Source: a plasmid
Assembly: GCF_055900595.2 (NCBI RefSeq)
Contig: NZ_JBVWEU010000004.1
Reading direction: 5' to 3' (one strand)
Length of the DNA stretch: 41,714 bases
In this document: positions 12,020 to 14,162 of the stretch, piece by piece
Numbering within the stretch: the stretch's first letter is position 1
Layout of the letters: each line of letters starts with the position of its first letter
Program-made: the position numbers and the translations under genes
The notes under the pieces: generated by a model
The model's database searches: none
Told to the model about the DNA's origin: nothing
Seen by the model: the letters and a program-made list of their open reading frames with translations, nothing else

Positions 12020-13768
12020 GTTTTCCGGGCATCCGTAAGGGCCGAAACTTCCCGTCTTCCAGTCTGCGGCTCTGCCGCCAGACGTAATCGCCGGTTAGGT
12101 TGATGTGCTCCCAGCCCAGCGGCGACAGGAATTGCAGCAGCTCGCCGTCCACCGGCTTGCCGGCCTCGACCAACCCCTGGGTGGCGCGTTCCAGGTACAC
12201 CGTGTTCCACAGCACGATAGCCGCCGTCACCAGGTTGAGGCCGCTGGCCCGGTAGCGCTGCTGCTCGAAGCTCCGATCCCTGATTTCCCCAAGGCGGTTG
12301 AAGAACACCGCCCTGGCCAGCGAGTTGCGCGCCTCACCTTTGTTCAGGCCGGCATGCACGCGGCGGCGCAGTTCAACACTTTGCAGCCAGTCCAGGATGA
12401 ACAGCGTGCGCTCGATCCGGCCCAGCTCGCGCAGGGCCACGGCCAGTCCGTTCTGGCGCGGGTAGCTGCCGAGCTTGCGCAGCATCAGCGAGGCGGTGAC
12501 GGTGCCCTGCTTGATCGAGCTGGCCAGGCGCAGGATGTCGTCCCAGTGGGCACGCACGTGCTTGATGTTCAGGGTGCCGCCGATCAGCGGGCGCAACGTC
12601 GGGTAGGCTTGCACGCCCTGCGGCACGTACAGCTTGGTTTCGCCGAGGTCGCGGATGCGCGGCGCGAAGCGGAAGCCTAGCAGGTGCATCAGGGCAAAGA
12701 CGTGATCGGTGAAGCCGGCCGTGTCGGTGTAGTGCTCCTCGATCCGCAGGTCGGACTCGTGGTACAGCAGGCCGTCGAGCACATAGGTGGAATCGCGGAC
12801 GCCGACATTCACCACGCGGGTGCTGAACGGCGCGTACTGGTCGGAGATATGGGTATAGAACAGCCGTCCCGGCTCGCTACCGTACTTCGGGTTGACGTGC
12901 CCGGTGCTCTCGCCCCGGCCACCCGCGCGGAAGCGCTGGCCATCGGAGGATGAGGTCGTGCCGTCGCCCCAGTGGGCGGCAAAGGCGTGGCGATACTGGT
13001 GGTTGACCAGCTCGGCCAAGGCCGCCGAATAGGTTTCGTCGCGGATGTGCCAGGCTTGCAGCCAGGACAGCTTGGCGTAGGTCAGGCCGGGGCTCGACTC
13101 GGCCATCTTGGTCAGCCCGAGGTTGATCGCATCACCGAGGATTGCGGACAGCAGCAACGTCCTGTCTTTGGCCTCGGCCCCGTCCTTCAAGTGGGTGAAG
13201 TGGCGGCTGAAGCCCGTCCAGTCGTCCACGTCCATCAGCAGTTCGGTGATCTTGATGCGCGGCAGTAACTGGCTGGTTTGGTCGATCAGCGCCTGCGCCC
13301 GATCCGGCACCGCCGCATCCAGCGGGGTGATTTTCAGCCCTGACTCGGTGAGGATGGCATCGGGCAGCTCGTTGTCCTTGGCCAGGCGGGTGACGGTGGC
13401 CAACTGCTCGTCCAGCAGCTGCAAACGCTCTTCCAGGTACTGGTCGCTGTTCGGGTTGATCGCCAGGGGCAGGGCCTGCTCGCGCTTGAGTGCGGCGAAC
13501 TTCTCGGCCGGCAGCAGGTAGTCGTCGAAGTCGCGGAACTGCCGCGAGCCCTTGACCCAGATGTCGCCGGAGCGCAGGGCGTTCTTCAGCTCGGACAGGG
13601 CGCAGATTTCGTAGAATTTCCGGTCGAGGCCTTCCGGGGTGATCACCAGCGGCTTCCAGCGCGGCTTGATGAAGGCCGTGGGTGCATCGGCCGGCACCTT
13701 GCGCAGGTTGTCGGCGTTCATCTCACGCAGGGTCTGCACGGCTGCCAGCACGCCTTGCGCGGCCGGCC
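12015..13768 (-). pseudogene. tnpA: Truncated Tn1721 tnpA (3' 1.75 kb) flanking the tet module
   Basis: Identical to the 3' part of the full tnpA at 17503-17832 plus 22783-24209; homology ends near 13768; the N-terminus of the ORF-track protein is non-native. Confidence 0.85.
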
Positions 13769-14162
13769 CGTGCTGTTCCCCAACTTTTCGCTCGGCGAAG
13801 AGTATGAACATGCGCCGCCGGCGACGAATCGCCAAATCTCACCGTATCTCCCGAGCGGACGATTTCGCACCGGTCTGCCCGTCGAAGGGCTTGCGATCGA
13901 ACGGGGCGACCTTTTCTATGCATGTCCGCGAGCCAGCGTCTTTTATGGCACGGCGCTCGACGCCGACCTTCGGACGCGCGGCGTAAGCACGCTTGTCATG
14001 GCCGGGATAAGCACCACCGGCGTTGTTCTTTCAAGCGTCGCCTGGGCTAGTGATGCGGACTACGACGTGCGTTTGGTCCAGGACTGCTGCTACGACCCGG
14101 ATCGGGATGCCCACGAAGCTCTGTTGCGTTCCGGGTTCGGCGGACGTGTACAGGTCGTGTAA
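13755..14162 (+). pseudogene. Isochorismatase-like cysteine hydrolase fragment (C-terminal part only)
   Basis: C-terminal segment FYGTALDADLRTRGVSTLVMAGISTTGVVLSSVAWASDADYDVRLVQDCCYDPDRDAHEALL resembles isochorismatase-family proteins; the N-terminal part does not. Confidence 0.35.

Follow-up and report, generated by a model that had tools for sequence, protein, structure and literature searches.

The 41,714-nucleotide plasmid stretch analyzed here (NCBI RefSeq assembly GCF_055900595.2, contig NZ_JBVWEU010000004.1; hereafter, the window) carries a Tn1721 tet(A) tetracycline resistance module in which an open reading frame (ORF) of the isochorismatase family lies between a truncated transposase gene, tnpA, and pecM. 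It is very probable that the segment at positions 13761-14162 of the window is an inert, 5′-truncated remnant, comprising codons 51 to 183 of 183, of an isochorismatase-like gene that a few other plasmids still carry intact. The truncation point, the microhomology at which it falls, the intact counterpart, and the loss of both translation signals and core fold elements are all direct observations. An original prediction, made from the sequence alone, had described the ORF as probably a nonfunctional relic carried with the tet module, and our results support this view: the gene is cut at codon 51 of 183 at its junction with tnpA and has lost its start signals and parts of its core fold. The location was likewise placed correctly, with the truncated tnpA occupying 12015 to about 13767 and pecM occupying 14300-15184.

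Identity and extent of the ORF

The ORF delimited mechanically comprises 135 codons on the + strand, from a TTG start at 13755 to 14162. On the same strand, the NCBI Prokaryotic Genome Annotation Pipeline (PGAP) places a coding sequence (CDS) from a GTG at 13770 to 14162, encoding a 130-residue “isochorismatase family cysteine hydrolase” (WP_001351729.1). The reading frame remains open upstream as far back as 13344, and this extension was considered as an alternative N terminus; it was rejected because the sequence is antisense tnpA and contains no ATG, GTG, or TTG before 13755. The Isochorismatase profile PF00857 matched the ORF with an E value of 3.5e-16 and a score of 60.2 bits, above the curated cutoff of 27 that defines membership in the family. 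The match spans ORF residues 43 to 126, corresponding to profile positions 79 to 162 of 175. The ORF is real, its coordinates are right, and its family assignment is far beyond chance. NCBIfam models of RutB, BiuH, PncA, and an unnamed hydrolase showed a weak, subthreshold likeness to it.

A protein search returned 274 homologues, the intact ones being uniformly 182 to 183 residues long, 75 to 99% identical to the ORF, and covering 99% of it. Their alignment starts at ORF residue 3 (“GRPVLFPNF...”, equivalent to residue 51 of the intact protein) and ends at the shared C terminus “...GGRVQVV”, and they possess 50 additional N-terminal residues beyond the ORF of the window. According to the profile match, the homologue alignment, and the DNA comparison, the segment at 13761-14162 (+ strand) thus corresponds to codons 51 to 183 plus the stop codon of a gene annotated elsewhere as “putative amidase” or “pncA-like”. 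The initial view that the family likeness is confined to the C-terminal part of the ORF was an artifact of distant comparisons, since the 182- to 183-residue homologues align from ORF residue 3 to the stop codon. The domain search and the alignment to full-length proteins that had been suggested as a check therefore confirmed the family, but it is the whole ORF, not a part of it, that is homologous. In the intact homologue P0003, PF00857 extends over residues 14 to 174 with 77.1 bits. The window copy, in comparison, does not retain a complete alpha/beta domain, as strand beta1, which bears the Asp position, and the helices after it are missing. No full-length homologue with intact catalytic residues, the finding that would have spoken against a relic, was encountered either; the homologues span the ORF and extend 50 residues further at the N terminus, and their catalytic triad is noncanonical.

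Intact alleles and the breakpoint with tnpA

Full-length versions of the gene were identified in three independent records. A Logan contig (L002) contains the complete gene and matches the window with 99.8% identity over a stretch that starts at 13761, includes the downstream spacer, and reaches into the start of pecM. Plasmid pB5 (CP002151) encodes a 183-residue “putative amidase” (ADU90789.1) within DNA that is 100% identical to the window over 13761-14967, the fragment itself corresponding without mismatch to positions 1718-2119 of the pB5 record (L005). Plasmid pSP21 (CP002153) carries a “pncA-like” gene for a 183-residue product (ADU90955.1) and is 99.9% identical over 13761-17333. In all three records, homology to the window begins exactly at 13761. 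In pB5 and pSP21, the intact gene lies directly upstream of the same pecM-tetA-tetR set, while a divergent GNAT acetyltransferase gene precedes it on the other side. These genes are intact alleles of the window fragment, complete with an ATG, a GGAGG site, and codons 1 to 50, and they share its downstream spacer, pecM, tetA, and tetR. The window copy, in contrast, starts only at codon 51, where antisense tnpA is attached to it.

The breakpoint was resolved by a three-way alignment of the window, a full-length tnpA (L011), and the intact gene from L002 and pB5. Sequence matching only tnpA ends at 13760, within codon 408 of 988, sequence matching only the amidase-like gene begins at 13768, and the full-length tnpA diverges after 13767. 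Between these points, the 7 bp GGCCGGC (13761-13767) occur in both tnpA and the intact gene. Because this motif is present in both parents, the joint is best interpreted as the product of illegitimate recombination at a 7-bp microhomology. On the far side of the module, the match of the tet region to pB5 and pSP21 breaks off precisely at 17470, where the other terminal inverted repeat (IR) has its outer base, as expected if a Tn1722-type element had transposed into an IncP-1alpha-like tetR-klcA spacer.

The left end of L002 (positions 1-28) is a Tn3-family terminal IR, presumably Tn5393-like (reverse complement GGGGTCGTCTCAGAAAACGGAAAATAAA), abutting sequence that matches pB5 from position 28; in that sample, another transposon has therefore inserted beside the acetyltransferase gene. 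The 5′ portion of the amidase-like gene (L002 330-560, 99.6% identical) also occurs in the Aliarcobacter cryaerophilus plasmid pCNAC48 (L012), inside a 222-residue “hypothetical protein” (5976-6644) beside blaVEB. This copy is a different fragment of the same amidase-like gene, on a Campylobacterota plasmid. In addition, a 71-bp piece of tetR (window 16617-16687) has a 93% identical second copy where the accessory region of pB5 and pSP21 ends on the trfA/oriV side (positions 20-90 of L005 and L006), and this repeat may be a scar of the entry of the tet region into IncP-1alpha plasmids.

Proposed origin of the joint

In the ancestral tet(A) region, the amidase-like gene was intact beside pecM, in the order tetR, tetA, pecM, amidase, GNAT acetyltransferase; this order survives in the IncP-1alpha plasmids pB5 and pSP21. 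A Tn1722-type transposon would then have been located with its IR directly abutting tetR, and illegitimate recombination at GGCCGGC would have joined amidase codon 51 to tnpA near codons 405 to 408. The simplest single event would be a tandem duplication, arising by recombination at GGCCGGC between two copies of one molecule, of a unit consisting of tnpA from codon 408, the IR, tetR, tetA, pecM, and the amidase gene to codon 51. Such a duplication would account for the second IR, for the directly repeated tnpA 3′ ends that characterize composite Tn1721, and for the amidase stub left at the novel joint. The truncated tnpA and the truncated amidase gene do meet at their 5′-truncated ends, and the other side of the unit is bounded by a complete tnpA. 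The joint and the repeats are observed, and from them we infer tandem duplication as the simplest route. Together, the microhomology joint and the intact IncP-1alpha allele provide a sequence-level scenario in which composite Tn1721 could have arisen from a Tn1722-type element located beside an IncP-1alpha-like tet(A) region.

A different scar in the same ancestral region has been described in a study of the IncP-1alpha tetA-trfA region, in which pecM is intact in pTB11, pB11, pB5, and pSP21, while RP4, RP1, and RK2 carry a pecM-orf2 deletion between 11-nt repeats (PMC11952213). Both scars reflect recombination between short repeats (11 nt versus 7 bp). The event in RP4 was a deletion that wholly removed the amidase gene and fused pecM to orf2, whereas Tn1721 has kept an intact pecM together with a severed amidase gene attached to tnpA.

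Coding capacity of the fragment

The native start of the intact gene is an ATG with a GGAGG 7 nt upstream. In the stub, codons 1 to 50, the ATG, the GGAGG site, and the region upstream are all gone, no GGAGG-type motif is present at the only candidate starts (TTG at 13755 and GTG at 13770), and the first in-frame ATG occurs at 13998. A simple consensus scan of 13400-14450, which is a weak test, detected no sigma-70-like promoter or terminator on either strand, and an Rfam scan of 13300-14400 with E values up to 1 gave no match. We then modeled the intact protein with AlphaFold2 from a 52-sequence alignment, obtaining a predicted local distance difference test (pLDDT) score of 94.6 and a predicted template modeling (pTM) score of 0.91. 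In this model, strand beta1 (residues 13 to 18) and helices 22 to 29 and 35 to 48 of the core fold fall within the missing 50 residues. Given the loss of the first core strand and two helices, a folded product of the stub is predicted to be unlikely.

Some copies in enterobacterial database entries have frameshifts near the joint, or are further truncated or fused through insertion sequence (IS) activity at the N or C terminus, which is consistent with the absence of constraint on a protein product. Sequence decay was also considered as a test for a pseudogene and was rejected as uninformative either way, given the complete identity of the fragment to the intact allele; decay is not expected because the element is too young. 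Several observations pull in the opposite direction. Sequencing errors could account for some of the frameshifted variants, the frame of the fragment is open, with no internal stop codon and not a single difference from the intact gene over the shared part, and PGAP annotates a normal CDS with no pseudogene flag. The promoter scan also misses any promoter for pecM, so that read-through transcription is possible. On balance, the stub most likely makes no folded protein and does nothing, since it is devoid of the native promoter, ribosome-binding site, ATG, strand beta1, and two core helices; the lack of expression is deduced from these missing signals. The stub would persist only by hitchhiking between tnpA and pecM in a young and very successful element.

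The alternative that survives best accepts a dead protein and assigns importance to the DNA, so that the segment, or read-through across it, would act as a promoter or 5′ regulatory region for pecM and be retained for that reason. The fragment and pecM are indeed codirectional and only 137 bp apart, and this spacer is also found downstream of the intact gene in pB5, pSP21, and L002, so that the two genes may originally have been cotranscribed. This role is nonetheless unlikely: the scans of the region, weak as the promoter and terminator test is, revealed neither such sites nor a known RNA family, pecM has no known function in the tet module, and retention needs no selection in so young an element. 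Furthermore, RP4/RK2 lost the whole stretch through the pecM-orf2 deletion and kept tetracycline resistance (PMC11952213).

A second alternative, which we consider highly improbable, is that translation of the ORF begins at TTG 13755 or GTG 13770 and yields a protein of 130 to 135 residues with some function, for instance, ligand binding or partnering PecM. Its appeal lies in the intact frame, in the presence of the PGAP CDS WP_001351729.1 in thousands of genomes, and in the retention of a conserved cysteine (Cys105 of the intact protein), of the “GISTTGVVLSS” segment, and of a “DCCYDPD” motif. However, the candidate starts offer neither a Shine-Dalgarno motif nor an ATG now that the native start signals are lost, and the product would be devoid of the conserved His19 and, from the Rossmann-like core, of strand beta1 and two helices. 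Natural copies with frameshifts, IS fusions, or further truncations also argue against a maintained protein, and it is the young age of the element, not selection, that explains why the fragment is still identical to the intact gene. Finally, a complete but short and divergent family member whose homology fades at the N terminus, as the restriction of the Pfam match to ORF residues 43 to 126 could suggest, has next to no chance of being correct and is already refuted by the intact homologues (75 to 99% identity), which all have 182 to 183 residues, begin to align at ORF residue 3, and continue for another 50 residues on the N-terminal side, by the antisense tnpA found at 99.9% identity upstream of the junction, and by the existence of an intact allele that is identical throughout the shared part.

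Active-site positions and the parent family

Canonical cysteine hydrolases of this family use an Asp-Lys-Cys triad and form a covalent thioester intermediate, while true isochorismatases of the EntB/PhzD type are devoid of the Cys and depend on Asp and Lys. To the positions of these residues we aligned the intact protein and the ORF, using as references 3mcw, YecD (1j2r), and the C169S variant of biuret hydrolase (6xjm). The position of the nucleophilic Cys, as defined by C169S of 6xjm, is occupied by Val138 of the intact protein, which is ORF residue 90 (codon at 14022-14024, + strand); YecD has a Gly there. The family catalytic Lys is replaced by Cys105 (codon at 13923-13925, + strand), according to the alignment to 3mcw, YecD, and BiuH. 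The distance from Cys105 to the Cys-equivalent position downstream is 33 residues, as it is from Lys to C169S in the 6xjm chain, and Cys105 is invariant in the 11 intact close homologues aligned. The canonical Asp at the end of strand beta1 corresponds to His19 in the intact homologue, in the region absent from the window. None of the three elements of a cysteine hydrolase, i.e., a Cys in the “G-x-x-T-x-x-C-V” segment, the Lys, and the Asp, was thus found, and the Asp and Lys conserved in EntB/PhzD-type enzymes are His and Cys instead in the intact homologue.

An exhaustive HMMER search yielded 1,917 representatives with E values of 1e-3 or better, 49 of which were aligned. Val occupied the Cys position in 43 of these 49, every intact close homologue included, mostly within a “TSGVVLST”-type segment. 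Most of the Val-bearing representatives retain Asp and Lys. The gene studied here belongs to a nested subclade in which His stands at the Asp position and the Lys has given way to Cys, Ala, Gly, Thr, or Asn. Of the 14 representatives with this Asp-to-His change, 13 have also lost the Lys, and the remaining one (P0130), which is N-terminally cut, fits the pattern. From these alignments, the two changes look like a coupled active-site replacement. The ratio of nonsynonymous to synonymous substitution rates (dN/dS) of the intact gene against chromosomal or metagenomic homologues from Ensifer, Microvirga, and a soil contig was 0.09 to 0.13, indicating strong purifying selection. With Val found throughout the clade and the gene under purifying selection, the missing Cys is therefore not a product of decay. 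The original prediction was right that the residue at the expected catalytic position is not Cys, but this does not indicate decay, since Val is typical of the clade. The parent is a real gene of an uncharacterized, catalytically noncanonical subfamily, for which “cysteine hydrolase” holds only as a family-level label.

The isochorismatase-like fold of the intact homologue was recognized by Foldseek with a probability of 1.00 and a template modeling (TM) score of 0.81 to YecD (1j2r), followed by TrtA, BiuH, EntB, and RutB. Escherichia coli YecD and the putative hydrolase 3mcw are its best matches in both sequence and fold (phmmer E values of 2e-9 for 1j2r and 4e-10 for 3mcw), with an identity of only 22 to 25%. 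Both resemble the family of the window gene in having no Cys at the nucleophile position but keep the Asp and Lys, whereas the latter has His and Cys. To our knowledge, none of these has a demonstrated function. BiuH, TrtA, RutB, NicF, and PncA share the alpha/beta fold (TM scores of 0.7 to 0.84) and the PF00857 domain; in contrast to these enzymes, the intact homologue bears His19, Cys105, and Val138 at the triad, and the window copy does not even have His19. EntB (2fq1) matches at the fold level only, with 23% identity.

No conserved neighborhood was found around the chromosomal and metagenomic homologues: neighbors differ at every locus, and no EamA/pecM gene is among them. No function can therefore be derived from context, and these loci give no support for a native amidase-pecM pair outside plasmids. 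Chromosomal homologues that are 88 to 92% identical occur in Ensifer, Microvirga, and Bosea (order Hyphomicrobiales), which hints at the source of that part of the region. For the parent subclade, it is conceivable, if doubtful, that the former active-site pocket has acquired a new catalytic dyad or a metal site made up of His19 and Cys105; if true, the enzyme chemistry would have been re-tooled. Of these two residues, the stub retains only Cys105 and would therefore be inactive even then, and a functional role for the stub itself is very unlikely.

The Tn1721 module around the fragment

The module is arranged in the order IR, truncated tnpA, fragment, pecM, tetA, tetR, IR. The outer end is a 38-bp Tn1721-type terminal IR (11982-12019, + strand), inside which the tnpA stop codon lies, and a second IR in the same orientation (+ strand) occupies 17470-17507. 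The two copies in the window are identical, each differs by 3 mismatches from the Tn1721 IR sequence used as the query, and none would be expected by chance. The second IR is part of a stretch at 17469-17832 (+ strand) that repeats 11981-12344 directly over 364 bp with 100% identity and represents the end of the tnpA of the original Tn1722-type element, interrupted at 17832. Direct repeats of the tnpA 3′ end flanking the tet region are a well-known property of Tn1721, and both the repeats and the gene order observed here are those of this transposon. The module DNA is 100% identical to that of thousands of plasmids bearing the same gene annotations, among them pC15-1a and pFBAOT6.

The 5′-truncated Tn1721/TnAs1 tnpA (12015 to about 13767, - strand) retains codons from about 405/408 to 988 of 988. 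Window positions 11980-13770 are 99.9% identical to the full-length TnAs1-family tnpA of pN55972-1, the reference used in the three-way alignment, and the truncated product matches positions 384 to 954 of 954 of the NCBIfam Tn3 transposase profile. Plasmid pFBAOT6 was tried as a source of a complete Tn1721 tnpA and rejected, its tnpA being interrupted or different. The mechanical tnpA ORF (12015-13835, 606 residues, TTG start) continues beyond the joint for about 70 nt of antisense amidase sequence, and its first 23 or so residues are therefore not transposase. On the other side of the fragment, the spacer at 14163-14299 (+ strand) is native to the ancestral arrangement, being contiguous and 99.8 to 100% identical in L002, pB5, and pSP21. 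It is followed by pecM (14300-15184, + strand), annotated as an EamA family transporter gene and matching PF00892 with an E value of 1.6e-39, and then by the tet(A) tetracycline efflux gene (15216-16415, - strand) and the tetR(A) repressor gene (16521-17171, + strand). Both tet genes coincide with ORFs and were mapped by offset, the former from a 100% AMRFinder tet(A) call in pC15-1a and the latter from WP_000164043.1.

Prevalence and annotation

When a 901-bp query spanning the tnpA/fragment/pecM joints was used, at least 2,502 plasmid records carried it with a coverage of 80% or more and an identity of at least 99%, and 4,698 of the 5,000 best matches reached this identity. By comparison, only 3 of 72,556 plasmid records contained the 5′ portion of the intact gene. 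The fragment is a standard, already annotated part of Tn1721, and the intact allele is already annotated in IncP-1alpha plasmids. What we add is the exact breakpoint at codon 51, the 7-bp microhomology, the proposed duplication scenario, and the recognition of the odd active-site residues as a clade trait. In the open-access literature, no paper joining pecM, pncA, and tetA was found, and a search pairing “Tn1721” with “isochorismatase” retrieved only an unrelated Staphylococcus aureus study. Papers on pecM and Tn1721 that were examined give the module as tetR-tetA-pecM followed by truncated tnpA and pass over the ORF.

These results have a consequence for annotation hygiene. The database entry WP_001351729.1 has the same sequence and position as the window CDS (GTG 13770 to 14162), and its name implies an intact Cys hydrolase, whereas the ORF is a remnant from a family without the catalytic Cys, Lys, and Asp. 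Under the name “isochorismatase family cysteine hydrolase”, the ORF has spread through thousands of RefSeq plasmids and genomes as a seemingly intact gene. We recommend flagging it as a pseudogene or fragment and leaving it out of the cargo of the tet(A) module.

Other features of the window

The rest of the window is that of an ordinary enterobacterial multiresistance plasmid, with rep, parAB, umuDC, a group II intron reverse transcriptase gene, IS1, IS5, Tn3-blaTEM, a Tn21-type tnpAR, and a class 1 integron with dfrA12, aadA, and sul3. Beyond tetR, the second, originally complete copy of the Tn1721 tnpA is cut after 364 bp at 17832 and is followed by a Tn3-type unit (17980-22749) composed of blaTEM (17980-18840), a resolvase gene (19023-19616), and a tnpA ORF (19585-22749). 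At the opposite end of the module, an N-terminal fragment of an IS5/IS903-like transposase (11749-11981) directly abuts the Tn1721 IR; the region at 9674-10642 holds a complete transposase gene of the IS5 family. The ORF for the group II intron reverse transcriptase/maturase (6575-7585), located beside umuDC, matches profile positions 84 to 353 and appears to be N-terminally short.

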